The translations under genes and the position numbers were made by a program. The notes under the pieces are model-generated. The model saw only the letters and a program-made list of their open reading frames with translations, did not search any database and was not told the DNA's origin. 24,210 nt of DNA from a virus (taxonomy: Duplodnaviria; Caudoviricetes): positions 1 through 24,210 of IMG/VR virus record IMGVR_UViG_3300014656_000139; one strand, written 5' to 3'. Shown here in pieces: positions 1 to 23,606 of this stretch (position 1 is its first letter; the number at the start of each line of letters is the position of its first letter).

Positions 1-178
1 GATGCCCCCGCCCGCCGAGATGCCCCCGCCCGCCGAGATGCCCCCGCCCGCCGAGATGCCCCCGCCCGCCGAGATGCCCTCGCCCGCCGAGATGCCCCCG
101 CCCGCCGAGATGCCCCAGCACGCCGAGATGCCCCAGCCCGCCGAGATGCCCTCGCCCGCCGAGATGCTCGAGCCCGCG
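1..178. repeat. 18-bp tandem repeat, at least 10 units (consensus GAGATGCCCCCGCCCGCC), coding
   Basis: Units start at 17, 35, 53, 71, 89, 107, 125, 143 and 161, plus a partial unit at 1; they encode I-S-A-G-[G/E/W]-G on the minus strand. Confidence 0.97.
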
Positions 179-348
179 AGCGCTCGGATCGAGCCTCGCA
201 CGAACAGGCGCTGGAACCAGACGACACCAAGGTCCTTGTCGATCTCAACGGAGGCCTCGATCGTGGTTGCTAGATCGAGCGTGCCGCTGTACTCAAGGCG
301 GCCGTTCCGCTCCTCGAAGTCGGATCGAGTGAGTACGATCTTGTCCAT
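1..348 (-). CDS. Hexapeptide-repeat (ISAGxG)n protein, probable beta-helix/solenoid; 3' end runs off the window
   Basis: Minus-strand ATG at 348-346 with strong RBS AAGGAGG just upstream and a leftward promoter. Reads MDKIVLTRSDFEERNGRLEYSGTLDLATTIEASVEIDKDLGVVWFQRLFVRGSIRALAGSSISAGEGISAGWGISACWGISAGGGISAGEG... with no stop before base 1, which explains its absence from the ORF track. Confidence 0.85.
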   Translation of the reverse strand, partial: MDKIVLTRSDFEERNGRLEYSGTLDLATTIEASVEIDKDLGVVWFQRLFVRGSIRALAGSSISAGEGISAGWGISACWGISAGGGISAGEGISAGGGISAGGGISAGGGISAGGGI

Positions 349-6815: not shown

Positions 6816-8167
6816 GCGGGGATCTGAAAAAGAGCCCGATCACGTGGCGCGACCGTGTGGGGCCCGGTGTCTGGGACAAGGTCGTCGCAGGGGGGAGGAG
6901 TGGGACCGTGGACAACCAGGCATCGGCCGATCTGTCTCCGGAGGTCCTCGTCGGCAGAATCGCCGCGATGGAGCAGTTCCTCGCGAGGCGCGATTTCTTC
7001 CGCGACTTCCGTGCCGAGGTCGAGGAGGCGGACAAGAGCAAGGGCGTCATTCAGTCGATCATCTCGGACGACTCGACGGACTACTACGGCACCGTGATCG
7101 CCCCGGGCGCCTTCGAGGACAGCCTGCCGCGGTTCCGGGACAAGGGCGTGGTGCTGTGGATGCACGGGATCGAGCTGCTCCGCGGCCACAAGCCGGTCGG
7201 GAACCCGGTGGACGGCTACCCGCAGTACGTCGGGAAGGGGAAGCGGCTCCTCCGGGCACGGACGAAGTTCGACATGCTCGATCCGTTCGCCTCGGAGGTC
7301 TTCCGGATGTACCGGGACGGCGTGATGAAGGACTGGTCCGTCGGGTTCCGGATCCCGAAGGACGGCTGGGCCGAGGAGCCGATCCGCGAGGATCAGACGA
7401 GCATCACGATCTGGACGGCGACGCTCACCGAGTACAGCGCCGTGCACGTCGGGGCCAACCCGAACGTCGAGACGGAGAAGATTCAGGGCCTCGTGCGGAT
7501 CGCTCTTGGCGGCTCGCCGGCACCGCCCCCGCTGACGTTCGAGCTTGACGACGAGGACGAGGAGCTCCGCGGTGCCCTGAAGCCCCACAAGACCGACCTC
7601 GCGCCGGAAGACACCCCATGGCGCCTCACGACCAAGGAACAGAACGAGCTCCCCAACGAGGCGTTCTCTTGGATCGACAAGGACTACCTGAGCGGGAAGT
7701 CCGAGGACAAGAGTCTCCGGAAGCTCCCGCATCACACGAAAGACATGAAGTGCGTCTGGCGTGCCGTGGCCGCGGCCATGGCGGTGCTCCGCGGTGCCCG
7801 CGGCGGGGCGAATATCCCCGACAAGGACCGTGCTGCCGTCTACCGCCACCTCGCCGGGCACTACAAGCAGTTCGACAAGGAGGTTCCTCCACCGCCCGGA
7901 CAGAAGGCCGCGGACGAAGAGGAGCCCAGCGAGCGTGAGCTCGAGGAAGTCATGGGCCGGGAGATCGGGCCGACGGGTGGTGACTCGATGGGACGGGTGG
8001 TGGTGCCCGCTCCCGACCCTGCTCTTACGAATGAGCTCGCACGGTTGCGGGCCGAGATCGAGGAGGTTGCACGGAGAGCACGAGAGCTTGAAATCGACCG
8101 TACGACGACGCGCAAGGCCGCGGATCTGATCGAAAGACTGGTGGTGACGTACGGAGGGAAGCGGTGA
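6812..8167 (+). CDS. HK97-type prohead protease with an additional C-terminal domain
   Basis: True start ATG 6812 (ATGA overlap with the portal stop), not 6473. Motifs DYYGTVIAPGAF, VLWMH, WSVGF, EYSAVHVGANP; extra domain LPHH...VWRAVAAAM...GARGG...HL..HY..F. Confidence 0.88.
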   Translation: MSGDLKKSPITWRDRVGPGVWDKVVAGGRSGTVDNQASADLSPEVLVGRIAAMEQFLARRDFFRDFRAEVEEADKSKGVIQSIISDDSTDYYGTVIAPGAFEDSLPRFRDKGVVLWMHGIELLRGHKPVGNPVDGYPQYVGKGKRLLRARTKFDMLDPFASEVFRMYRDGVMKDWSVGFRIPKDGWAEEPIREDQTSITIWTATLTEYSAVHVGANPNVETEKIQGLVRIALGGSPAPPPLTFELDDEDEELRGALKPHKTDLAPEDTPWRLTTKEQNELPNEAFSWIDKDYLSGKSEDKSLRKLPHHTKDMKCVWRAVAAAMAVLRGARGGANIPDKDRAAVYRHLAGHYKQFDKEVPPPPGQKAADEEEPSERELEEVMGREIGPTGGDSMGRVVVPAPDPALTNELARLRAEIEEVARRARELEIDRTTTRKAADLIERLVVTYGGKR

Positions 8168-9696
8168 AGTACTTCGATGAGGCCGCGAACGGCGGAACGA
8201 CGAGCGAGCAGACGCAGAAGAAGCCGCCCGTCGAAGCCGGGACCGCGGTCTTGGATCCGACGACCGAGCAGCTCCATGCGATCGGGAAGCTCCTTCACGA
8301 CGTGAAGGACGTTCTGAAGCGCGGGGAGGACCAGAACAAGACGAAGGACGAGGTCGAGGCCGAGGCGATGCGCCTGCTCAACTCGGCGATCAAGACGCAG
8401 GCCGAGACCCCCCGCAAGATGGTGTTCCCGTCCGGGCAGAGCGGCGAGCTCCGCCAGCTCTGCGCCGGCCGCACCGTTGAGGAGGTGTACAACCTCCCGA
8501 CCGACAACAAGCAGATCCGTGAGTGGCAGGAGCTCGGCTCGCGCCTCGCGATCCAGCACCTGATCCACGGAAGCCCGCAGAGGGCTCACCGGACGAACTA
8601 CTACGAGCGCGGAGGCTACCGGACGCTCAAGGCACATCAGCGTTTCCTCTCGCTCTCGAAGGAGCTCGACAAGGCGGTGCGTGCCGCGGACTCGACGAAG
8701 CCGTGGAACATCACGACCGCCGGACAGGGCTTGGAGTTTGTTCCGTCGGATCTTGCGAACACGTGGCTGGAGCCCTACAGGCTGAAACTGGCCGTCGCCG
8801 CGCTGTTCCGTGAGATCCCCATGCCGACGAACCCGTTCGACATCCCGGTTCTCACGACGAGGGTGCAGGCTCTGAAGCGCACCGAAGTCGCCGCGAAGCC
8901 GACCAGCGTCTACTCGGAGATCACTCTGACGAATCAGGGCACCTCGAAGAGGACCCTCACGGCCGTCGGGTACTACATGGTGTCGATGATCTCCTCGTAC
9001 GCCGAGGAGGATGCGATCGACGCGGTGATGGACCTGATCCGTGACGACCTCGGTCGTGGCATGGTCGACGCGCTCGAGAACGGGATCCTCAACGGCGACA
9101 CCGCTGGTACGCACCAGGATGCCGACGTGACCGCCGCGACCGACATCCGCACCTGTTGGCTCGGGCTCCGGGCCTACTGCGCGGACATGGAGGCTGCCGG
9201 GAACAACGGCACGTCGGTGCTCAACGGCAACATGTCCGTCGCTGGTCTCCAGGCGGCGCGTGCCGCGATCGGGAAGTTCGGAGTCATCCCGCAGGAGTGT
9301 GCCTGCATCATCTCGCCCATGTCGTACCTGAAGCTCATCAAGGACACGAACGTGGCGACGGTCGACAAGTTCGGCCCGGCCGCGACCATCCTTCAGGGCG
9401 AGCTGGCGAAGTGCGAGGGCATCCCGATCATCGTATCCGAGTGGCAGCGCGAGGACATCGACAACGAGGGTTACTACGTGGACGGCGTCGACGACGTCAG
9501 CACGGCGATCCTCGTCAACCGCATGGCGGGCTTTTGGGGAACGAAGGGGGGCATCGCCCTCGAGACGTTCCACGACCCGCTGAACAAGGCCGACACGCTC
9601 ATCGCCGATGCGCGCAGGGCCTGGACGTGGCACGAGGACGCTGCGGCTGCCTCGTCCAAGTACATCCACTGCCTCATCAAGGTGACGCTGGCCTAG
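8164..9696 (+). CDS. Major capsid protein (HK97 fold) with long N-terminal delta/scaffold region
   Basis: Follows the protease; G.E.VP, FREIPMPTNPFDIP, LENGILNGD, VDKFGPAATILQGELAK.EGIPIIVSE motifs. Confidence 0.93.
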   Translation: MKYFDEAANGGTTSEQTQKKPPVEAGTAVLDPTTEQLHAIGKLLHDVKDVLKRGEDQNKTKDEVEAEAMRLLNSAIKTQAETPRKMVFPSGQSGELRQLCAGRTVEEVYNLPTDNKQIREWQELGSRLAIQHLIHGSPQRAHRTNYYERGGYRTLKAHQRFLSLSKELDKAVRAADSTKPWNITTAGQGLEFVPSDLANTWLEPYRLKLAVAALFREIPMPTNPFDIPVLTTRVQALKRTEVAAKPTSVYSEITLTNQGTSKRTLTAVGYYMVSMISSYAEEDAIDAVMDLIRDDLGRGMVDALENGILNGDTAGTHQDADVTAATDIRTCWLGLRAYCADMEAAGNNGTSVLNGNMSVAGLQAARAAIGKFGVIPQECACIISPMSYLKLIKDTNVATVDKFGPAATILQGELAKCEGIPIIVSEWQREDIDNEGYYVDGVDDVSTAILVNRMAGFWGTKGGIALETFHDPLNKADTLIADARRAWTWHEDAAAASSKYIHCLIKVTLA

Positions 9697-9712
9697 TGAG
9701 GCGATGTGAGTC

Positions 9713-9744
9713 TGTGGGGGAGGGGCTTCGGTCCCTCCCCCATG
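9713..9744 (+). terminator. Strong stem-loop after the capsid gene (cUUCGg tetraloop, no U-tract)
   Basis: TGTGGGGGAGGGGC-TTCG-GTCCCTCCCCCATG; may be a partial terminator or an mRNA-stabilising hairpin. Confidence 0.65.
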
Positions 9745-9758
9745 AGAAGGGAAGAGCG

Positions 9759-10073
9759 ATGCAACGGAAGAAGAAGGCGGCCAAGGACCCCGGCGACGGA
9801 CCGGCCCCCGCAAAGGTCGGGGCCCCGAAGTACGTGCGCTTCATTCGGAACTTCCGGGGCGTCGGGTTCTCGGCGAAGGCCGGGAGAGTGAAGACCGTCG
9901 AGGAGTGCGGGGACTTCCTCGAGGACATTTTGCAGATGGGCTACGGCGTGGAGACCGACAGCCCGGAGGAGGTCGCGCCTCGGGCAGCTGGGGCGTCAAC
10001 GGATCCGCAGAACCATCCGGAGGCGGGCGATCCGCGCTACAGCGGACTGCGGAGGGGAGGAGGACCGCAGTGA
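9759..10073 (+). CDS. Small hypothetical protein after the capsid gene (104 aa)
   Basis: ATG 9759 after GAGAAGGGAAG; core KYVRFIRNFRGVGFSAKAGRVKTV...LEDILQMGYGVE resembles small post-capsid proteins. It is the 3' part of track ORF 9156-10073. Confidence 0.75.
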   Translation: MQRKKKAAKDPGDGPAPAKVGAPKYVRFIRNFRGVGFSAKAGRVKTVEECGDFLEDILQMGYGVETDSPEEVAPRAAGASTDPQNHPEAGDPRYSGLRRGGGPQ

Positions 10074-10996
10074 AGAGGCGGTGGATGCTCTATCGGGCTG
10101 GCGCCGTTCTGGTTGCTCTCGCCGTAGTCTGGATCGTCTCCGGGGTGTCGGTGGAGAAGGTCGCTGCGACGAGCAGCTACACGCCGAACGAAGCGCTCAA
10201 TCGGATCCTGGACGAGCTGCTGACGACTCCGGCTGACACGACGGTGGCCAGGGACACCACGTCCCTGGCCCTTCCGAAGCCGAGCGGATGCGACATACTC
10301 GACACGCTCGTGGTCCCAGACACGACGGCACGGGACAGCTCGTTCATCACGACGGACACGGCGTCTGTGGACACGGTGGCCTTCACCGAGACGATGCCGA
10401 CATGCTGCCACGAGCTCGACACGCTGGTGGTTGTGACCGATTCCTTCTGGGTCTGCACGGACACGGCCTACGTGGACACGATCTCCTTTGGGAGTCCGCC
10501 GCGCCGGGCCCCGGTTCCCACGTGCTACGACGTCTTGGACACGCTGATTGAGTACACCATCGACCTCGACAGCTTCCATGTGTGTACGGACACCGTGATC
10601 ACTCCGGAATATGTTGGGGTTGTCCCGTCTGTGCTACGTGCGATCGAAAGCGGCGGTTCGGGCAAGGTGGCCTATGACTTCGCGGCTCTGGACGCCGACT
10701 CGACGACGTGGGTCTCGCCTCCGGAGAAGTGCGGCATGTTCGGGTGGGACCTCATTCGGTTCACAGCCGCCGACGGTCCGTGCTCGCTGTTCCTCTGCAG
10801 CACCCTGAATGCGACGGACACGGTCTGCGTGGACACGCTTGTGGTCCCGTTTCCTGGAATGAACATGGGGGCACAGGGATCCTTCGTCCCGCTTCCCGTG
10901 CTCTTGCCGCTCGAACTTGAGGGGTTCGGGGTCGCGACCGCAGAGAGCCTTTCCTACCTACGGATCTTCTGGCTCCCGAAACGAGGTGGTTCGTAG
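10070..10996 (+). CDS. Predicted exported protein (308 aa) with three Cys-containing repeats and dense D-(S/T) motifs
   Basis: GTG 10070 after GGAGGAGG, GTGA overlap; N-terminus MKRRWMLYRAGAVLVALAVVWIVSGVSVEKVAA is a signal peptide or anchor; 17 D-T/D-S dipeptides; 10 Cys. Confidence 0.8.
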   Translation: MKRRWMLYRAGAVLVALAVVWIVSGVSVEKVAATSSYTPNEALNRILDELLTTPADTTVARDTTSLALPKPSGCDILDTLVVPDTTARDSSFITTDTASVDTVAFTETMPTCCHELDTLVVVTDSFWVCTDTAYVDTISFGSPPRRAPVPTCYDVLDTLIEYTIDLDSFHVCTDTVITPEYVGVVPSVLRAIESGGSGKVAYDFAALDADSTTWVSPPEKCGMFGWDLIRFTAADGPCSLFLCSTLNATDTVCVDTLVVPFPGMNMGAQGSFVPLPVLLPLELEGFGVATAESLSYLRIFWLPKRGGS

Positions 10997-12394
10997 ATGA
11001 AGCCGCGCCTCTCCACGATCGTCGCCGTGGTCTTCTCCGTCGCGTGGGCTTGTCCTGCCCAGGCCGGGAGCGACTACGTGCTCATCACGGGCTACGAGGG
11101 CGGCTACGGGCAGTGGTCAGGGAAGGTCGTCACCGGAACCGGGACTCTTTGCGACACGTCTTTGACTGTGAAGTACAGGGGGACCCGGGCTGCCAGACAT
11201 CGGTGCGGATCGACGGACGGCACGAGCGCGGCGCTCCTCAAGCCGGACCGAAGCTCCTTCGTGAGCCTCTCGTATTGGTCCAACACGAACCGCATTGTCG
11301 GCTCAGGGGCCTATCGTCATCCCGTGCAGCTCATCCAGTCGTCTCGCACGTCTGGGATCGGACTGTTCTCCACAACTCAGTGGCATTATGCAGCATCCTC
11401 CGATTCGTTCCAGCTTGGCTGGACGGCTCGCGACGACATAGGGGGCTATCCGACCACGAATGGGGGCATCTACCCGAAAAAGGAGTGGATCCGCTACGAG
11501 ATTGAGATGTATCAGTCGGCACACGGATGGATTCGCTTCAAGGTGAACGGCGAAACGCTCTACGATGCGCCGGCGATCCTCGACACATCATATGTCGACA
11601 GTGTGCTGGTGGGGTGGATTGCGGACGCCTCGTTCGGCGACATCGACACCGGCACCGTGTACTACGACGACGTCGTGTACAGCACGGTCCATTATCCTGC
11701 GCCCCAGACTAGGATCTTTGAGGCACACGCAGATCCAGGCGGCCTCTCCGAATGGTGGGGCGCCAACATCACGGGGACCGGGAACATCCTGAGAGACTCG
11801 CTTCTAACATCGTTCTCGGGCACGAGGGCGCTCGTGGCGGTACCCAGCGTGGCAGGCTGGATGACAGTTAAACAGATCCTGCCCCCTGTTCAGGCTTGCC
11901 TCCACTTCGAGGGCCAGATCAACGCGGACAACTTCCAGTCGGGGAGCCCGGTGAGGCAGGTTCTATACGGATACGCTCGCGGGAACTCCTCGGTTCGGCT
12001 TCAGCTCTTCATGGCTGCCGTGTCTGGTGGATACCGAATCGGCCTAACTCTCTCAGACGACGTGGAGATCATCCAGAGCAACACGCCGATCGACACGGTA
12101 TCGGGGGGCTCTTGGCATCGCCTGAACTGGTGCCAGTGCCGCGGCGCTGGGGACGGGGTCTTCCAGATCGACATTGACGGTCAAACCAAGTACTCGGCGG
12201 CAAATCTGACAACCACAAACTCGATGATCGACAGCATGCTTGTCGGTCTCCGGGTTACTAATCCCGTGAGCGAGTCGGGATGGGTAGCGTGGGACGAGAT
12301 CTACGTGCACTCCATGCCGTGCCCGCCTCCGTGCGGGCTCACGACGCGACTGGATCGAGTCCCCTCACGGGTACAAGTCGGGATGTGGTGGTGA
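10997..12394 (+). CDS. Predicted secreted protein with two tandem ConA/LamG-like beta-sandwich domains
   Basis: Signal peptide MKPRLSTIVAVVFSVAWACPAQA; RBS GAGGTGG; internal duplication (W..YEI..GWIRFKVNG...DSVLVGW...GTVYYDDV versus WHRLNW..GVFQIDIDG...DSMLVGL...GWVAWDEI). Confidence 0.75.
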   Translation: MKPRLSTIVAVVFSVAWACPAQAGSDYVLITGYEGGYGQWSGKVVTGTGTLCDTSLTVKYRGTRAARHRCGSTDGTSAALLKPDRSSFVSLSYWSNTNRIVGSGAYRHPVQLIQSSRTSGIGLFSTTQWHYAASSDSFQLGWTARDDIGGYPTTNGGIYPKKEWIRYEIEMYQSAHGWIRFKVNGETLYDAPAILDTSYVDSVLVGWIADASFGDIDTGTVYYDDVVYSTVHYPAPQTRIFEAHADPGGLSEWWGANITGTGNILRDSLLTSFSGTRALVAVPSVAGWMTVKQILPPVQACLHFEGQINADNFQSGSPVRQVLYGYARGNSSVRLQLFMAAVSGGYRIGLTLSDDVEIIQSNTPIDTVSGGSWHRLNWCQCRGAGDGVFQIDIDGQTKYSAANLTTTNSMIDSMLVGLRVTNPVSESGWVAWDEIYVHSMPCPPPCGLTTRLDRVPSRVQVGMWW

Positions 12395-12398
12395 TGCC

Positions 12399-13265
12399 AT
12401 GGCCGAACTGAGACGACGAAGCGGGATCTCCTACGGCGGGCCAGTCGATCTCCTCGATGAGGGCTACATCGAGCGCTACGTCGGCGGAGAGGATGTGGGT
12501 TTCACCTGTGGCGCCGCCGCGGACAAGGACTTCGTCGGCTACGTGGCCGTCGACGGGGACGGGTACGAGAGGGCCTATCGGAGCTACTTCCGGTTCGACT
12601 TGTCGGGCCTCAGCCTGGACAGCATCGCCGCAGGGACGCTCCGCTGGTACGTCGAGGGGATCGACCTGTACCAGGGATACCCCACACCTTCTGAGTCGCT
12701 GCGGATCGAGTACGGCTGGGGCGCCTTCGGGAATGTTCTGTGCACGGCACCGAATCCGGGATCGAACTGGAACCCTTCGGACATGTGGCTGCTGTGCATC
12801 CTACCGTGGATCAGGTGGGCCGGAGACGGGGTGGGGAAGTACTACGAGCACGTGCTCACGCTGACCCAGCTGCGGACGCTGTTCTCCCACGAGTCCGCCG
12901 ATCAGCGGCTGGACCTGCGGTTCATCCTCTCGTCGCAGGGTCCCGACACGGGCTTCCGCGTTCGGATCCCGGCTGGCGAGGACATTCGACTCTATCCCGA
13001 GCTCGTTCTTCAGACCGGGACCCTTCTCGAGACGGAGCCGCTTGTTGCTGTCGCCTCGGACGATGGTGTCCTCACTCCGAGGGCCGAGGCCGGGGCCGTC
13101 AAGTCGGGCGTCGAGAGTGGCGCTGCGGAGGCGCGTGTCGAGACGCACACCATTCACGCGGCGGTCGATTCGGGTGTGGTCGGCGGCGTGCGCGTCGAAG
13201 ACGGTGCCGTGAAGGCCGGCTGCGCGAAGAGAACCCTCACCCTTCGCACCGAGGAGGGCGCCTGA
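12399..13265 (+). CDS. DNRLRE-like beta-sandwich protein with 9-residue periodic C-terminal tail
   Basis: YRSYFRFDLSGL....IAAGTLRWY and a terminal YPELVL match the DNRLRE-type domain pattern; C-terminal V-E/D-x-G repeats. Confidence 0.6.
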   Translation: MAELRRRSGISYGGPVDLLDEGYIERYVGGEDVGFTCGAAADKDFVGYVAVDGDGYERAYRSYFRFDLSGLSLDSIAAGTLRWYVEGIDLYQGYPTPSESLRIEYGWGAFGNVLCTAPNPGSNWNPSDMWLLCILPWIRWAGDGVGKYYEHVLTLTQLRTLFSHESADQRLDLRFILSSQGPDTGFRVRIPAGEDIRLYPELVLQTGTLLETEPLVAVASDDGVLTPRAEAGAVKSGVESGAAEARVETHTIHAAVDSGVVGGVRVEDGAVKAGCAKRTLTLRTEEGA

Positions 13266-13628
13266 GTGGCAAGGACCGAGGTACAAGTTTCGCTCTTCGC
13301 CGGCGACAAGTTCCCGCTCGAGTTCGCCGTGCTCGAGGGCTCGGAAGCCGAAGGCTGGGAACCGCTCGTTCTTCGGGACTCAGCGGAGCAGGAGTGCGGC
13401 GTCACGCTCACTGTCTGGCACGAGAAGACCAAGACGAAGATCGTCACCGCTCAGGCCGTGACCCTATCGGACGCCGACGCAGGGCTCTGCTACTACGTCC
13501 TGAGCGCAGCCGAGACCGCAACAGCGGGAAGGTACGTGGGCCAGCTGAAGATCACGAACGTGGGCTCACACGATGCGATCAAGCGGACGGAGACCTTCAT
13601 CCTCTCGATCGCACCGACGGAGGCGTAG
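13266..13628 (+). CDS. BppU N-terminal-like (Ig-like) adaptor protein
   Basis: AGDKFPLEFAV...LSDADAGLCYYVLSAAETATAGRYVGQLKIT pattern; RBS GGAGGG; GTG directly after the previous stop. Confidence 0.65.
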   Translation: MARTEVQVSLFAGDKFPLEFAVLEGSEAEGWEPLVLRDSAEQECGVTLTVWHEKTKTKIVTAQAVTLSDADAGLCYYVLSAAETATAGRYVGQLKITNVGSHDAIKRTETFILSIAPTEA

Positions 13629-14252
13629 ATGGGCGCGGACACCGGACTGGAATACTCCCTCGTCCCGACCGTTGCCGAGATGAAGGGCTATCTGGGGTTC
13701 TCGGAACCGAACGAGGACGACCCGGTCAAGGAGCTCCTCCTCGAGATCACGGAGGATCTGGAGCACTGGTGTGGCCGGCACTTCGTGTCGCGCACGTGGG
13801 ATCTCCGGATCCACGGGAACGGGAACACGAGGATCCTCTTGCCGGAGTGGCCGGTTCAGTCGGTCACATCCATCTATCTCGACGACGACGACACGGTGGA
13901 GCTTCCGACGACGTCTCTCCTCTTCGACAACGACGAGCAGCGCGGGCGGTTCCTCTACGCGAGGGACGGCTACGCCTTCACGAGAGGCGAGCACAACGTA
14001 CACCTCACGTTCGTGACGGCGTACCTCCAGAACCCCACAGCGGAGCAGCTGACGGCCGGCTACCTGAAGCTGCCCGCGTCGATCGTCGGGCTCGCGAAGC
14101 GGATCGCGGCGCGGAGATGGAAGCGCCGGCAGAGGCTCGGAGACGAGGTGGTCTCCGAGACGTTCGAGGGAGGAACGGTCCAGTACCTCCAGGAGGAGCT
14201 GACGGAGCGCGACAAGGCAACCCTGCGGAGGTTTACGAGGTTCCGTGTCTGA
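13629..14252 (+). CDS. Head-tail connector/adaptor (HK97 gp6 / SPP1 gp15-like)
   Basis: TVAEMKGYLG...DD..ELLL...LEHWCGRHFV...LPEWPVQSVTSI...NVHLTFVTAY...LP; synteny. Confidence 0.85.
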   Translation: MGADTGLEYSLVPTVAEMKGYLGFSEPNEDDPVKELLLEITEDLEHWCGRHFVSRTWDLRIHGNGNTRILLPEWPVQSVTSIYLDDDDTVELPTTSLLFDNDEQRGRFLYARDGYAFTRGEHNVHLTFVTAYLQNPTAEQLTAGYLKLPASIVGLAKRIAARRWKRRQRLGDEVVSETFEGGTVQYLQEELTERDKATLRRFTRFRV

Positions 14253-14871
14253 TGAAGGCGGCATCGCAATTCGCATCCCGGAGCTCCGGATCCCCCCGTC
14301 CCTGGTGGACAACCGGGAGATGCTGGAGCGGCTGTGGAAGCACGTGGGCGTTGCGGCGGTGCAGATCGGCTCGATGCTTGAGGACGCGGCTAAGTACGGA
14401 GTCACCGGACGCTTTCTCAACGTGCGGTCCGGAGATCTCCGCCGGTCCATCGCGCACAACGTGGAGAAGGGCCGCCCGGGCGAGGAGCTCCGGATTCACG
14501 TCGGCTCGCAGGACCGTGTGCCCTACGGCGCGATCCACGAGTTCGGCGGAACGATCAGGCCGAAGAGGGCGAAGTTCCTGTGGATCCCTGGCATCCACAA
14601 CAAGACCGCTACGGGCCAGGCCAGGAGCGCACCGAGCGACTGGTATCCGTTCGGCGAGCACGGCATGTGGTTCCACCCGGGACTGCTCGCCGGCGAGTTC
14701 GAGGCGTTCGTAACCGAGGGGAAGAAGACGAAGCACATGTTCACCCTTCGGAAGAGCGTGAAGATCGAAGGCAAGGAGTGGCTCAAGACGGCGATCGAGG
14801 AGCGGTTCGCTGAGATTCACCGCATGTGGTGGGACGCGCTTGCGAAGTTCGTCGCCGAGGAGAAGGCGTGA
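14245..14871 (+). CDS. Neck/tail completion (virion morphogenesis, Mu gpG / HK97 gp10-like) protein
   Basis: LNVRSGDLRRSI, VGS...VPYGAIHEFGGTIRPKRAKFLWIP and KSVKI motifs. Confidence 0.82.
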   Translation: MSDEGGIAIRIPELRIPPSLVDNREMLERLWKHVGVAAVQIGSMLEDAAKYGVTGRFLNVRSGDLRRSIAHNVEKGRPGEELRIHVGSQDRVPYGAIHEFGGTIRPKRAKFLWIPGIHNKTATGQARSAPSDWYPFGEHGMWFHPGLLAGEFEAFVTEGKKTKHMFTLRKSVKIEGKEWLKTAIEERFAEIHRMWWDALAKFVAEEKA

Positions 14872-16429: not shown

Positions 16430-16888
16430 GTGCGAGAGAAGGAAAGGAAGGAGGAGCGAAAGCCGGAGAATCGAGTCACGACGGCTGACGAGCTCCTCCA
16501 GAAGACCAGAAAGATCATCGAGACGCCGTCCGGGCTGAAGCTGCGGATCCGCAAGGTGACGCCGTACACGCTCGCGCAGCACGAGGCGTGCCGTCCGATG
16601 ATGCAGAAGATCCAGCGCGCTACGAGGCGCGGCGAAGAGAACGTCGCGGCGCTGGAGGATCCCGAGCTCGGATCGAGCTTCATCCAGATGGTCGTGCATC
16701 TCGGAGTGATCGAGCCGGCGCTGGCGCTTCCTGGCCTTGCCGCGACCAACGGGAGACCCACGGTCGACGATCTCGGCGAGGAGCTCATGTTCGTGTACGA
16801 GGCGATCAGCGTCTTCTCCGGGATCAAGACCGGCCCGGAGGTGTCGGAAGGCACCTTTCGTGACGAGGGAGCTCCTTCGGCTCCTTGA
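16430..16888 (+). CDS. Tail assembly chaperone (gpG-like)
   Basis: Between tube and TMP; IETPSG..LRIRK and GVIEP motifs; ends just after a TFR slippery site. Confidence 0.8.
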   Translation: MREKERKEERKPENRVTTADELLQKTRKIIETPSGLKLRIRKVTPYTLAQHEACRPMMQKIQRATRRGEENVAALEDPELGSSFIQMVVHLGVIEPALALPGLAATNGRPTVDDLGEELMFVYEAISVFSGIKTGPEVSEGTFRDEGAPSAP

Positions 16889-17006
16889 CCTGACGGGGGC
16901 GCGCTATGGGGTGCTCCCGTCCGAGCTCCTGCGCTGCGACTGGTGGGAGCTCTTCTTGAATGTGCGGGCCGCAGTGGAGGGGATCACCTCCAGACAGGTC
17001 GAGTGA
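16860..17006 (+). CDS. gpT-like segment of the tail chaperone (probably a +1 frameshift product)
   Basis: VTRELLRLLDLTGARYGVLPSELLRCDWWELFLNV lies in the +1 frame starting at ACC TTT CGT G; the RYG.LPSE pattern is typical of gpT segments. Confidence 0.7.
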   Translation: MTRELLRLLDLTGARYGVLPSELLRCDWWELFLNVRAAVEGITSRQVE

Positions 17007-19376: not shown

Positions 19377-21535
19377 TGGGCGTCGGCTCGTACTTCCAGG
19401 ACCTGGTTCTCGCGACGGTGCCAGAAAACGAGGCGTTGATCTATGGCGGACACGGCGGAGAAGGGGGTCCGGGAGCGATCACGTACGACTCCGGCTGGGG
19501 CACTTCCGTCATCCGGATCCGGGCGATGGCTCCGCTGGAGCCGGGCGAAGACGAGTCCTGGTACCGGACGTTGGTCTTCGTCCCTGACGCTTCCGGCGAC
19601 GTCGGGGAGTCCGACGAGTACAGCCTCACAGTGAGGTGGCGGCTCTACCGCGGCGACTTCACACAGGCGTCCCCCGCTCTGTCCGGTCGCATTCGTGTTG
19701 GGTACGACTACACGGCCGGGACTTGGATCGCACTCCCATTCGGCCTGGCCGTCTCGTTCTCGGCGGGGACGATCGCCGCGAGCAAGAGGGCCTACCTGTA
19801 CATCTACCCCGCCCGCGTCTTCCCGCCGTCCTACCGGGAGATCAATCTCTCCTCGGAGATTTTCGGTGTCGACGGTCTGACTCCCGCCTTCGGTGTCCAG
19901 GAGGTCGAGTCGCAGGACTACCGCCGCGTGACCGCCGAGGGGCGCGAGACGCGGGCGCCCGTCTCGCTCCGTCGCAACCTGTGGATCGCCGCGGAGGGCG
20001 TGCCGATCGCCGTGCGGACCGAAATCCTCCGCTGGATCGAGGAGGGCCGGCGCGTCGCCGCATTCCCCTACTACAACTCGTTCACGCGGCTGCTCGTCCC
20101 GTTCCAGGACAGCCTTCGCTCCTATATCGGCCAGCAGCCCTACACCTACGCCGGCGAGACGAACGAGCCCGGGCGCCGCGGCTACTTCCAGGATCGAAGC
20201 GGGATCTGGCGTCCGTCGATACCCTCCGCCGTGGCGTGCTTCGAGAACATGGAGCCGCTCGGACGCGGGCTCGTCCTTGCGGAGGGCGACGACAACGACT
20301 GGGAGAACCTGGTCTACCCGTCATCCCCGACAGGCAGCGGCAACCTCGGCTGGTCTGCCTCCGGCGTCAACGACACGACCGAGTTCGACGCGGAAGTCCC
20401 CTTGCCCGTGGAGGCCGATCCCGGTGCTGTCCGCTGGAAGGTCGGGGCATCCTCGACCGGGCTCGCGCTTACCTTCTCTCTCGCGACCGCCGCGCCCGGT
20501 ATCTTCTCCGTCTGGGTCTGGGGTTCGTCTGCGGACATCGTCACACTCGAGCAGACGCCGGCGCAAGGAAGCGTGCCGCGGAACTCGACCACGCTCACGC
20601 CTTCGACGACTCCTCAGCGGGTCTTCGTCGGCGTCCAGGGTGTTTCCGGATCCGTCACCGTGAAGCTCACCGCAGACGAGGGATCCCTGCTCTGGGTTGC
20701 GTGCGCTCAGGGGGAGGAGTGCCGGGACACGTACTGGGGCGCCGGGAGCATCACCTCTTGCGCCTGGCACGGACCAACCGCATACCAGCGTCGCCTCACT
20801 GCGTCGGGCGACGTGGAGCGGGAGAATACGCTCTGGTCTATCGCGTCACGGCTGGCCGGGTACGCCGGGCGCGTCTCGTTCTTCTGGAGGCCGAACTTCA
20901 TCGGCGGATCGACGACCGGCGGGATCATCGGAATGGCCGCATCGAGCACGTCTGACTTCTTCATCGCCATGACGGATGCCGACGGTGACGGGGATCCCGA
21001 GATCCGCGCCTACATCCGGTCGGGGCAGTCCTCCATCGTGGGCATCACCACCGCCGAGCTCGCCGACGTGGACCCAACGACCGTCTTCTTCGTCGTGTTC
21101 ACGTACCGAGTCGTCGACGGGGATCTCACGCTCCGCCTCGAGGTTTTCTACGATGGAGCGCCCGAAGGGATCGTGGCGACGAGTACTTCGGGCGATAGCA
21201 CATGCTCGGTCGCCGTAGACCTCGAAGCCCATTCCGTCGGCCGGTGGCATGGCACGATCGCGCTCCTCCGTGTCGACGCCGACTCGCACATCTCCAGCCC
21301 GCCCGGCACAGGAGACGAGAGTTACTGGGCGCGGCGCCAGTACGAGTGGTGGACGCGCTCCGAGACGAAGGAGATCGCGAAGATCCTGTTCGGGCGCGAG
21401 TACGAGATCGTGACCGGAGAGCAGGCGCCGTTCGGCGGCGACAGCTCGCACGTCAATCTACCCTTGACCCTCGTCGAGGCTCGAACGGACGAGTACACGG
21501 CGGTCTACAAGGGGAGGGCGCCCGGTGAGGGATAG
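19376..21535 (+). CDS. Tail-tip protein 1 (possible distal-tail-like protein with inserted carbohydrate-binding/LamG-like modules)
   Basis: Directly after the TMP with TGATG coupling; beta-rich; GLVLAE...NL, FSVWV and AQ.E..PTAY motifs seen in CBM-bearing tail proteins. Confidence 0.6.
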   Translation: MGVGSYFQDLVLATVPENEALIYGGHGGEGGPGAITYDSGWGTSVIRIRAMAPLEPGEDESWYRTLVFVPDASGDVGESDEYSLTVRWRLYRGDFTQASPALSGRIRVGYDYTAGTWIALPFGLAVSFSAGTIAASKRAYLYIYPARVFPPSYREINLSSEIFGVDGLTPAFGVQEVESQDYRRVTAEGRETRAPVSLRRNLWIAAEGVPIAVRTEILRWIEEGRRVAAFPYYNSFTRLLVPFQDSLRSYIGQQPYTYAGETNEPGRRGYFQDRSGIWRPSIPSAVACFENMEPLGRGLVLAEGDDNDWENLVYPSSPTGSGNLGWSASGVNDTTEFDAEVPLPVEADPGAVRWKVGASSTGLALTFSLATAAPGIFSVWVWGSSADIVTLEQTPAQGSVPRNSTTLTPSTTPQRVFVGVQGVSGSVTVKLTADEGSLLWVACAQGEECRDTYWGAGSITSCAWHGPTAYQRRLTASGDVERENTLWSIASRLAGYAGRVSFFWRPNFIGGSTTGGIIGMAASSTSDFFIAMTDADGDGDPEIRAYIRSGQSSIVGITTAELADVDPTTVFFVVFTYRVVDGDLTLRLEVFYDGAPEGIVATSTSGDSTCSVAVDLEAHSVGRWHGTIALLRVDADSHISSPPGTGDESYWARRQYEWWTRSETKEIAKILFGREYEIVTGEQAPFGGDSSHVNLPLTLVEARTDEYTAVYKGRAPGEG

Positions 21536-23606
21536 ACCCTACACCATCATCACGGCGCCGATGCTCCGCGGGAAGCTGGTCTCTGAGGAGGACGGCGGGT
21601 GGCCCCTGGACATGCCGCTCCCCCGGGCCCGGGGGGAGCCGACGGTTCACGCCGCCCGGTATGCCCTGCACATCTCCCTCCGCCGAAGGCCAGGCTCCGC
21701 TGGCTCCTATATCCGTTTCTGCTGGTACGACCTCGAGCTGAACCCGACCGGGGCTATTTCGTACGGTCCGTTTCTCCTCTTGGGGGAACACGACGTCGGA
21801 CTGACGTGGAGCGGAAAGCCCCTTGCGGTCGGATTTGGCGTCACTCTATACCTCCCGACCGATCCCGACTGGCCCGACGAGGTCGGGACCTACACGTGGG
21901 AGTTCCGCGGACTCCGCCGGCTACCACGCGACTGGGGACTCGTCACCCTCCTCGAGACGGACGACACGAACCCGGTGGTCAAGGTCTCCGGTGTTTCCGC
22001 TCCCGAGGGAGCGCCGCTCGCGGCTGGCGGCTTTCGCCGCGAGGGAGGTCCAAGGAGGCTTCTCCTCGGCTTCGACCCGTCGATTGTCAGGGCCACCCTA
22101 CAGGGGACGCTCACGCTGGCGGAAACGCTCCGCTCTCCCGTGGCGTTCTTCCCGGAGTTCGACGAGACCACACTGCTCTCGATTCCGTTCACGCGCTGCT
22201 CGCTCCCCGAGATCGGCTCGCCGCCGCTCCCCCTCGGTCACGACGGATACCCGCTCATGCGGCACGAGCGGGAGCGCCCGGAAATGGTGCGCTGCGCTCA
22301 CCGGGCGGCCGATCGCCTCGACCGGCGCCTCACCCTCTACGGGACGACGATCGAGGAGGCTTTCCCGGACGCGACGTTCTCGCTCAGCTCCCCCTCCGGG
22401 GAGAACGACGACTGGACGACGCGACCCGAAGGCTCCGGGGACCAGTACGACCACCTCGGACCCGACGAGTCTTTCGACCCGATCGAGCCCAGCCTCTCCG
22501 GCGCACACGTCTGGAGAAAGGGCTCCGAGGCGGAGTACTTTGGCAGGACCTTTACTTCACTGACGGCAGGGGACACGGTCTCCTTCTCGGTCTATGTCCG
22601 CGGCTGCGCTCACGTCATCCTCTCCCTCTCGAATGTGTCTCAGGTCTACGGCGACACGGAGACGGTTCACGCCCCGGGCGAGGGCTGGCGAAGGCTCATG
22701 ATCTGGGGCGTTCTCACGGACGTCGAGACGGAGATCACCATCAACCAGGGGAACGAAGGCGACGTAATGGAGTTCGCCGGCTACCAGTTCCAGGTGATTC
22801 CGGGTGACGCGGCGATCGGTGGCGAGGCGTCCTCTCTCGTCCCGCGCTTCCTCGGTGAGGAAACCCGAGCCGCTGCGTCTCCGGAGTACGTCGTCCCCAT
22901 GTACGGGGACCGCGGGACGGTGTTCGTCGTCTGCCGCTGGTCCTACCGCGGCGGAGGCGTCGGCTGGGTTCCGCTCCTCACCGCCTACGACCCGGACACG
23001 CCGGCGCACCTGTGGCTCTTCTGCTTCCGATCTCCAAACGACACGAACGAGGACGCCGGCGTTGCTCTGATCCGGAACACGGACGCGACGACGACGACCT
23101 GGTGGGAGGAGATCGCGAGCCCTGGTCTTCCCGGCGATCTCCTCCATCTCGTCTGGACGTGGGAGCCGGAGGACGACTCGGGCGTGACAAAGACCAGAAT
23201 CAAGATCTACCACGACGGGTCGCTCCTCCTCTCCGCGCTCACGGACGAGGTGCCCGACATGCTCGGAGAGCGCATCGTGGTGGCTCCGTCCGAGGACCTC
23301 CCGACGATCGACTCGGACGAGACGGTTCCCTATGCCGGCACCTTCTACCTGGTCCGCTACGATCAGCAGGTCTGGGACGCGACCGAGATCGCCCGGCACT
23401 ACCAGACCTGGTCGGGTGACTTCGGGCGGGACCTCCTTTACCTGTCGCAGGGGAGACGGTTCGAGGCGAGCGTGGCTGGCGGATTCGCGCCCACTCCCGG
23501 GGCGGAGATCTACTCCCTGTCATCCCTGCGGCTCCGCCAGATCGGCGAGTTCCCTCCGGAGGAGGACCCGACCGGTGCTGAGATGTACGAGAGGAACGAC
23601 CCATGA
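21525..23606 (+). CDS. Tail-tip protein 2, paralog of 19376-21535
   Basis: LTAGDTVSFSVYVRG...GWRRL...GYQFQ CBM-like module, then LamG-like HLVWTW...IKIYHDGSL...WDATEIARHY; shares blocks with the upstream gene. Confidence 0.6.
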   Translation: MRDRPYTIITAPMLRGKLVSEEDGGWPLDMPLPRARGEPTVHAARYALHISLRRRPGSAGSYIRFCWYDLELNPTGAISYGPFLLLGEHDVGLTWSGKPLAVGFGVTLYLPTDPDWPDEVGTYTWEFRGLRRLPRDWGLVTLLETDDTNPVVKVSGVSAPEGAPLAAGGFRREGGPRRLLLGFDPSIVRATLQGTLTLAETLRSPVAFFPEFDETTLLSIPFTRCSLPEIGSPPLPLGHDGYPLMRHERERPEMVRCAHRAADRLDRRLTLYGTTIEEAFPDATFSLSSPSGENDDWTTRPEGSGDQYDHLGPDESFDPIEPSLSGAHVWRKGSEAEYFGRTFTSLTAGDTVSFSVYVRGCAHVILSLSNVSQVYGDTETVHAPGEGWRRLMIWGVLTDVETEITINQGNEGDVMEFAGYQFQVIPGDAAIGGEASSLVPRFLGEETRAAASPEYVVPMYGDRGTVFVVCRWSYRGGGVGWVPLLTAYDPDTPAHLWLFCFRSPNDTNEDAGVALIRNTDATTTTWWEEIASPGLPGDLLHLVWTWEPEDDSGVTKTRIKIYHDGSLLLSALTDEVPDMLGERIVVAPSEDLPTIDSDETVPYAGTFYLVRYDQQVWDATEIARHYQTWSGDFGRDLLYLSQGRRFEASVAGGFAPTPGAEIYSLSSLRLRQIGEFPPEEDPTGAEMYERNDP

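Follow-up and report, generated by a model that had tools for sequence, protein, structure and literature searches.

Why should a tailed phage keep genes for secreted-looking proteins among the genes of its head? To our knowledge, tailed virions are held to be assembled entirely in the cytoplasm. The question is raised by a stretch of 24,210 nucleotides (the window, meaning here the whole stretch analysed), IMG/VR virus record IMGVR_UViG_3300014656_000139. This single phage record of 24.2 kb is arranged like the genome of a long-tailed phage, with terminase, MuF-domain portal, protease, HK97-type capsid, connector, neck, tail tube and tape measure in this order. The genes at issue, here called A, B, C and D, stand between capsid and connector (Table 1). 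Judged from sequence comparisons, A and B, and not A to D, are the unit, and the product of A (and probably that of B) is very likely to be exported and glycosylated by the host. An exported, probably host-glycosylated head-block module would mean a periplasmic maturation step in particle assembly or a late envelope-remodelling function; either would be new for tailed phages within the literature searched.

Export signals and glycosylation motifs

Leaders were called with a home-made rule, not a trained predictor, that was written with A and B in view before any homologue was known. It requires an uncharged 11-residue segment with a mean hydropathy ≥1.9, starting in the first 24 residues and preceded by a net positive charge. 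Two of the 21 called genes of the window (from position 2618 on) are flagged, exactly A and B, in agreement with the earlier note on this DNA, which had read N-terminal signal-like leaders on these two genes and none on C and D. Apart from A itself, a phmmer search over 1.84 billion representatives found 10 homologous proteins (E 9e-24 to 2e-5), and the rule is passed by 11/11 members of the family despite divergent leader sequences (P0013 was used for P0004, of which it is the full-length cluster member, because P0004 starts mid-leader). B and its two homologues pass as well (3/3). A basic n-region, a hydrophobic h-region and a small-residue cleavage site, features of Sec signals cleaved by signal peptidase I, are found in all 14 A- and B-type proteins (cleavage sites by eye). 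The signal region is the sole hydrophobic stretch of A (19-residue mean 2.39); it is long enough for an anchor, and the 10 homologues have shorter, cleavable-looking signals. The A family has no lipobox and A no second membrane segment. Among three in-frame starts of A, 10070 has the strongest Shine-Dalgarno sequence; a start at 9905 was dismissed (−2.4 versus −11.4 kcal/mol). Twin-arginine export, considered for the paired Arg in the leader of A, was rejected in favour of Sec because such a pair occurs in only 2/11 members. B was also considered as a lipoprotein (Cys19) and rejected, with a lipobox that is poor by eye and a homologue without Cys at that place.

Behind its predicted Sec signal, A has a short helix, a stalk rich in Cys and in glycosylation motifs, and a C-terminal jelly-roll, with 10 Cys altogether. 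The three imperfect stalk repeats (Table 1) are Cys-bounded and motif-rich, and occur as a single copy in P0005 and P0007. The C-terminal domain is common to the family, while the stalk varies from almost none (in a protein of 143 residues) to the three repeats of A. No match to A was found in Pfam, PHROGs, NCBIfam or PDB sequences. A profile of A found no member beyond the phmmer family and only chance rows in a PDB sequence search, word-index searches with A and B returned only proteins of the same phage, and HHalign found no match between A and the other post-capsid families of the loci surveyed below.

The motif in question, D-(S/T)-(A/I/L/V/M/T), is the sole bacterial O-glycosylation sequon known according to the accessible text of PMC12871550, and is described there, and in the accessible text of PMC8729774, as modified only outside the cytoplasm. 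A contains 14 such motifs versus 2.4 ± 1.5 by chance, with a maximum of 9 in 20,000 shuffles. In an exported set of 14 proteins (11 of the A family, B and two B homologues, with the first 25 residues removed), 103 motifs are counted where 17.1 are expected, about six-fold, and 13/14 proteins are singly enriched at P<0.02. Control motifs are rarer in the same set (Glu-substituted 9, reversed 14). Leaderless open reading frames (ORFs) show no excess, with 18 versus 19.4 expected in 24 ORFs of the window and 3 versus 13.0 in 19 ORFs of a second phage, L131. The enrichment spans helical stalks, jelly-rolls and ConA domains, but not leaderless proteins. Leader and motif are independent signs of one thing, export. 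The export, disulfides and glycans that the earlier note had proposed are well supported for A and B, given a signal in the whole A family and in both B homologues and a motif enriched only in exported proteins. Export and host glycosylation are strongly indicated because the leaders are conserved, the motif excess lies in exported proteins and A and B are paired again in an unrelated phage (G001, see below).

Like the substrates of the general O-glycosylation system of Bacteroidota (as far as set out in the accessible text of PMC12871550 and PMC8729774), A and B are signal-bearing and enriched in the motif over chance, and leaderless proteins are not. Unlike them, they are phage-encoded, stand in a head block, have a glycosylation that is predicted, and belong to a phage whose host traits are atypical of Bacteroidia. 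Glycan-coated tailed virions also exist among mycobacteriophages, whose capsid or tail tube proteins are glycosylated, as is predicted for A and B. In those phages, glycosyltransferases that the phage itself encodes modify virion proteins in the cytoplasm; A and B, in contrast, imply no export-independent route, and the window showed no gene for a glycosyltransferase. Elsewhere, glycosyltransferase genes directly follow capsid or decoration genes, in L131 (16455-20283, phrog match) and in L006, L008, L010 and L016 (by eye), possibly as a second, phage-encoded route to glycosylated heads.

The motif points to a Bacteroidota-type glycosylation system and so doubles as a host marker. Shine-Dalgarno use is weak in Bacteroidia. 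Pairing at −5 kcal/mol or better is found for 22/24 genes of the window and 13/13 of L131, for 1/16 genes of Cellulophaga phage phi10:1 and for 30% of 400 control codons. Gln follows the by-eye cleavage site in 0/14 leaders of the A and B types versus 5/5 in phi10:1; this Q-rule is reported for >99% of Bacteroidetes species, not across the FCB group (accessible text of PMC5837995). Strong Shine-Dalgarno use and the missing Q-rule point, as traits read from the genome, to a host outside typical Bacteroidia, which may lie elsewhere in the FCB group, and the motif hints that the glycosylation system extends to uncultured lineages. No tRNA was found in G001. A GTDB scan gave loci in Chloroflexota throughout (35/35, 26-33% identity), a result biased by a single motif that does not name the host. 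L019-L053 come from 35 genomes of Chloroflexota, for the most part chromosomes of Dehalococcoidia; in them a connector stands almost immediately behind a phage-like capsid gene, which may mark a conserved element that is domesticated or resembles a gene transfer agent.

The A and B pair, its folds and its nearest parallels

The pair recurs in G001 (L131), an 88-kb IMG/VR phage with 37% GC versus 64% in the window. Its genes run in the order terminase, portal, a 125-residue membrane protein, A-homologue, B1, B2, A-homologue, protease/scaffold and capsid genes. B corresponds to a fusion of the adjacent, signal-bearing G001 genes B1 (BLASTP E 1e-13) and B2 (E 1e-11), with their order kept. The capsid and portal proteins of the window have no significant BLASTP match in G001 (capsid E 1.4), and its connector, tube, C and D have no phmmer match there at E up to 0.05 (four stretches). 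At a third locus, L133, an A homologue follows the portal and a haemolysin-like small gene. The known contexts of A are thus in the head block in 3/3 cases, after the capsid (window), between portal and protease/scaffold (L131) and after the portal (L133), and represent at least two unrelated phage groups. When alignments of A and B were scanned, IMG/VR gave no match besides L001 and G001, and metagenomes gave only the window's own record and L133; tblastn of A, B, C and D against 50,697 GenBank phage records gave no match at E up to 1.

Behind a predicted Sec signal (residues 1-23), the ESM Atlas model of B has two tandem beta-sandwich domains resembling ConA and polysaccharide lyases. They match other predicted models with template-modelling (TM) scores of 0.68-0.83 by row over about 200 residues and come close to protein clusters of tailed phages (TM 0.83 by row, with models on both sides). 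The Pfam scan gave no PF14099 match for B itself; its two homologues match at E 9e-7 (29.4 bits) and E 0.008 (16.5 bits), both under the cut-off of 29.9. In A, an AlphaFold2 model from an 11-row alignment shows an eight-stranded sandwich at about residues 200-303, with a predicted local distance difference test (pLDDT) score of 60-86, and values below 50 over residues 53-197. Compared with 48,161 chains by VIA-align, this domain gives jelly-roll rows at Z 6-8.3. The best row is Ena1 (Z 8.3, root-mean-square deviation [rmsd] 2.8, 95 aligned, 13% identity), and others are the SPMV capsid (Z 7.8), the STIV turret (Z 7.6, rmsd 3.0, 98 aligned), YomS (Z 7.2), XepA (Z 7.1), the KHP40 cement (Z 6.5, rmsd 3.0, 96 aligned) and the HFTV1 turret (Z 6.3, rmsd 3.1, 94 aligned). 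The predicted domain has the size of cement, turret and penton proteins, and as a model it is compatible with a decoration role without demonstrating one.

Several known systems can be set beside A and B. Cement, decoration and turret proteins (KHP40 7DOU, HFTV1 8QPG, STIV 4IND, XepA/YomS) are, like A, small eight-stranded jelly-rolls encoded near the capsid gene; as far as is known their synthesis is cytoplasmic, whereas A comes with a leader and with a stalk rich in motifs, and the Z-scores are generic. The HFTV1 turret, described in the available text of a preprint (bioRxiv 10.1101/2024.12.09.627619) as a small base with a carbohydrate-binding head, recalls A and B together and would be their best functional analogy; the term ‘signal peptide’ has 0 occurrences in that preprint. 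Ena1, Ena2 and Ena3 (7A02, 9I0Y, 8PDZ) are the top structural rows for A and form disulfide-linked extracellular fibres. ESM Atlas also lists Ena subunits for A, below its bar; they are, however, fibres of Bacillus spores without a sequence match to A, and their scores are tied with those of viral jelly-rolls. The closest precedent is phi10:1, where the consecutive late genes gp091-gp094 bear Sec-type leaders (home-made rule) and are annotated as ‘structural protein’ from tandem mass spectrometry of virion preparations (GenBank KC821618); the notes of that record carry no remark on the leaders. Unlike A and B, gp091-gp094 lie in a tail block, have Q-rule leaders and few motifs (0-3 each), and share no homology with the pair. 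Exported prophage proteins and morons are likewise phage genes adapted to the host Sec pathway: the signal-bearing genes of Porphyromonas gingivalis prophages (Q-rule proteins of Nixviridae) and ORF22 of phage P1312 are read as envelope modifiers in the accessible texts of PMC10367356 and PMC4569894, respectively. A and B differ from such morons in being coupled into a head block, with no promoter or terminator of their own found. No paper on tailed phages whose particle proteins are exported and glycosylated by the host came up in full-text searches, which leave out most subscription journals.

C and D stand apart from the pair. Both are leaderless and neither is motif-rich. The DNRLRE-like character that the earlier note had given to C comes down to a weak match of its N-part (NF033679, E 0.044, 13.9 bits versus a cut-off of 34), followed by an extended beta-strand-like C-terminal segment; no homologue of C was found, and a PDB sequence search gave chance rows only. 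The BppU-N-like character of D is weak too (PF10651, E 0.0045, 17.1 bits versus a cut-off of 23.1), and viral scans with D and the connector found no relative. As judged by eye, the connector of L088, L101, L106 and L127 is preceded by two genes, one with a segment of extended beta-strand and one of ~100 residues that is immunoglobulin (Ig)-like, and in L002 an Ig-like domain is fused to the connector. D has no significant match to these Ig-like genes by HHalign or phmmer. A leaderless beta-strand gene and an Ig-like gene of this kind (by eye) precede the connector in relatives without an A or B homologue. C is probably a neck fibre, and D probably a neck adaptor with a BppU-N-like Ig domain. 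The idea of a single four-gene cassette does not hold, as the block divides into an exported pair (A, B) and a leaderless pair (C, D); that of C and D as adaptors on which A and B dock is not supported, with G001 having the exported pair and, in the four stretches covered, no detectable C or D, and with such beta-strand and Ig-like genes in relatives that lack the pair.

Signal-bearing genes between capsid and connector are a wider phenomenon, as a survey called for in the earlier note indicates. Loci were found via the capsid protein (26-38% identity), and 88 of them, not counting the window, had a connector that could be placed; 14/88 have a signal-flagged gene in the interval. By the home-made rule such genes are commoner there (16/190) than upstream (17/663, Fisher p 8e-4) or downstream (19/491, p 0.02), with p values uncorrected for kinship and likely false calls included, none being dropped. 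Among the 14 loci, L003 and L004 look like small membrane proteins, six are one related group and the genes of L112 are lipoprotein-like. Homology to A is not detectable for any of the flagged genes. Those of L118, L120 and L127 are enriched in the motif and most others are not; because enrichment is confined to few flagged loci, export would be the wider trait and the motif would follow the host.

The intervals contain further families. L118 6815, L120 3249 and 3863, and L127 8206 are signal-bearing, motif-enriched post-capsid genes unrelated to A. A signal-bearing family of ~159 residues without motif enrichment stands in or beside the post-capsid slot (L007 4854, L009 2112, L011 9780, L012 2735, L013 7395, L014 4369); in L006, L010 and L016 the same slot has a leaderless protein of ~140 residues, and HHalign did not connect these two families. 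Proteins with a signal that are fibre-like or beta-helical (up to 1168 residues, PF13229) occupy the interval at L106 4672-9135, L103 4981-7269, L068 6997 and L065 11092, and two lipoprotein-like, Cys-rich genes (CAP-like by eye) the head block of L112 (14217-15421).

Particle, envelope or surroundings

A role on the particle is favoured because of the constant head-block place, the fold of A and the phi10:1 record. Counting both routes weighed here, direct docking of A and B and a neck appendage shared with C and D, the particle has a somewhat better than even prospect of being their final place. The preferred account, for which the balance stands about level, is that A and B are an independent head-block module, exported, O-glycosylated by the host and docking on finished particles at lysis. 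Here it may be held with high confidence that A and B would be expressed late together with the head genes, that signal peptidase I would cleave their leaders, that disulfides would form in the Cys-rich stalk and that glycosylation at D-(S/T) would take place in the periplasm. With moderate confidence, A, with its stalk and jelly-roll, would serve as base or spike and B as the head on it that binds carbohydrate, both added after assembly, like capsid decoration proteins, once lysis opens the inner membrane; the appendage would then act as a glycan shield and grip the surface polysaccharide of the host reversibly. C and D would be a separate, cytoplasmically made pair of neck fibre and adaptor. 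In its fullest form the account is more tentative and falls somewhat short of an even chance: a lineage outside typical Bacteroidia would send part of its particle through host Sec and O-glycosylation, and a mobile stalked jelly-roll and lectin module would mature in the periplasm and snap onto heads at lysis. If true, Caudoviricetes would have an extracytoplasmic assembly step and a host-glycan-coated virion, and D-(S/T) O-glycosylation would reach beyond its known hosts.

Several points weigh against this account. The motif counts are not independent, because the proteins are related and the repeats of A contribute, and B alone is not significantly motif-rich (4 versus 1.8, P 0.10). The fold match of A is generic, with the non-viral Ena1 spore appendage subunit as top row and the lower rows tied. 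The phi10:1 proteins lie in a tail block, are not homologous to A or B and could be co-purified. The host traits of the phage are unlike those of Bacteroidia. What speaks most against a capsid cement is the presence of the module in phages whose capsid proteins are unrelated; since those of the window and G001 have no significant match, it is hard to read as capsid-specific. Such movement between phages that differ in capsid, connector and tail proteins would also suit another explanation, to which a minor though substantial chance is given: A and B, once exported and glycosylated, would remain in the envelope of the infected cell as a receptor mask or decoy, a superinfection block or a preparation for lysis, and their head-block place would only serve to have them strongly expressed, late or by read-through. 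Such a role in the envelope or in lysis would fit the small membrane gene (L131) or haemolysin-like gene (L133) that precedes A, and the accessible text of PMC8729774 places the P. gingivalis glycan mainly on periplasm-facing, not surface, proteins. The prophage and P1312 genes cited above are read in this way, and the hairpin and gap behind the capsid gene would allow separate control. However, envelope retention finds no lipobox in the A family and no second membrane segment in A; coupling is tight on both sides, no promoter or terminator of the pair's own was found, base composition and Shine-Dalgarno use match those of virion genes, and all three contexts are in the head block.

The remaining explanations are less probable. 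That A to D build one neck appendage, with D on the connector, C on D and exported A and B docking on C at lysis, is improbable. It would make sense of the uninterrupted coupling of four genes to the connector, of the Ig-like domains that relatives have in front of the connector or joined to it, and of L106 and L127, where signal-bearing genes also stand before a fibre and adaptor-like pair; G001, however, has A and B without detectable C or D, L088 and L101 have the fibre-plus-adaptor-like pair without a signal-flagged gene, and no significant sequence link joins D to those adaptors. Even less is to be said for soluble glycoproteins freed at lysis, which would not be particle-bound but would act on capsule, S-layer or biofilm polysaccharide to release progeny. 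Export would set A and B beside such a substrate and the B domains resemble polysaccharide-lyase/ConA folds, but no curated enzyme family matches at cut-off and the stalk of A suggests surface display. Lastly, it is very unlikely that the leaders are mis-called starts or cytoplasmic membrane tethers rather than export signals and that the motifs are structural beta-turn repeats. The home-made rule, the long hydrophobic stretch of A and the share of its three repeats in the motif count would leave room for this; the tripartite leaders in 14/14 proteins, the spread of the motif over unlike folds and not over leaderless proteins, and the Shine-Dalgarno sequence of start 10070 speak against it.

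The gene block and its surroundings

The ORF coordinates given by the earlier note for A, B, C and D stand, as do the junctions (GTGA overlap, TAG-ATG, 4-nt gap, TGA-GTG, TAG-ATG). Its placement and coupling of the block between capsid and connector are right; its count of four genes is not, since a fifth, of 104 residues, had been missed. As to the further claim that the block has no room for its own promoter or terminator, the junctions are tight, and scans found no + strand terminator and 0 sigma-70-like promoters versus 0.7 expected, other promoter types being outside the scan. The claim is weakened by a 62-nt gap between the capsid gene and the 104-residue gene, occupied by a strong UUCG hairpin; with these behind the capsid gene, the block may have a promoter of its own or a processing site ahead of it. 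The hairpin is likely to be an mRNA stabiliser or attenuator. It is very stable and may govern how much capsid protein is made relative to the products of the genes behind it.

Table 1. Features of the capsid-to-connector interval, in window coordinates
Feature	Coordinates	Strand	Basis
Major capsid protein, HK97 type	8164..9696	+	phrog_10 E 3e-7; PF05065 E 0.002
G+C-rich UUCG-loop hairpin 3' of the capsid gene, without U-tract	9711..9747	+	9700-9760 fold −32.9 kcal/mol; not called as terminator
Leaderless gene between capsid gene and A, 104 residues; no family found	9759..10073	+	library searches
Gene A, 308 residues	10070..10996	+	ORF call
Predicted signal peptide of A, residues 1-33	10070..10168	+	home-made rule; cleavage site by eye
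Three imperfect repeats of A, ~39 residues each (74-112, 113-151, 152-190)	10289..10639	+	by-eye alignment, family alignment; low model confidence
Conserved eight-stranded single jelly-roll of A, about residues 195-305	10652..10984	+	phmmer family, AlphaFold2, VIA-align
Gene B, 465 residues	10997..12394	+	ORF call
Gene C, 288 residues, leaderless	12399..13265	+	ORF call
Gene D, 120 residues, leaderless	13266..13628	+	ORF call
Head-tail connector	13629..14252	+	phrog_442 E 2e-25; TIGR02215 39.8 bits, cut-off 39

The G+C content at third codon positions is 0.81 in A and 0.76 in B versus 0.82-0.90 in other virion genes. The cassette is not an assembly artefact. Its letters show no differences, gaps or joints in the groundwater runs X1, X2, X4 and X5 (X1, X2 and X4 may be the source, and X5 covers no more than parts of C and D); in IMG/VR, record L001 agrees fully with the window in A and in the first 293 residues of B. 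The sole strain differences seen thereabouts are five clustered substitutions at 14310-14352, in a neck gene, in one X2 contig.

Three features lie further out. A tail-region protein (21525-23606) has a weak match, below cut-off, to the head spike fibre domain of gene transfer agents (NF048003, E 0.012). On the minus strand, a gene that is open at the left end of the window (1-348) encodes a hexapeptide repeat (18-base tandem repeat at ~1-165), which we take to be typical of phage beta-helix repeat proteins. At 16430-17006, the gene of a tail assembly chaperone is followed by an overlapping ORF of 48 residues, in the layout of a programmed frameshift pair.

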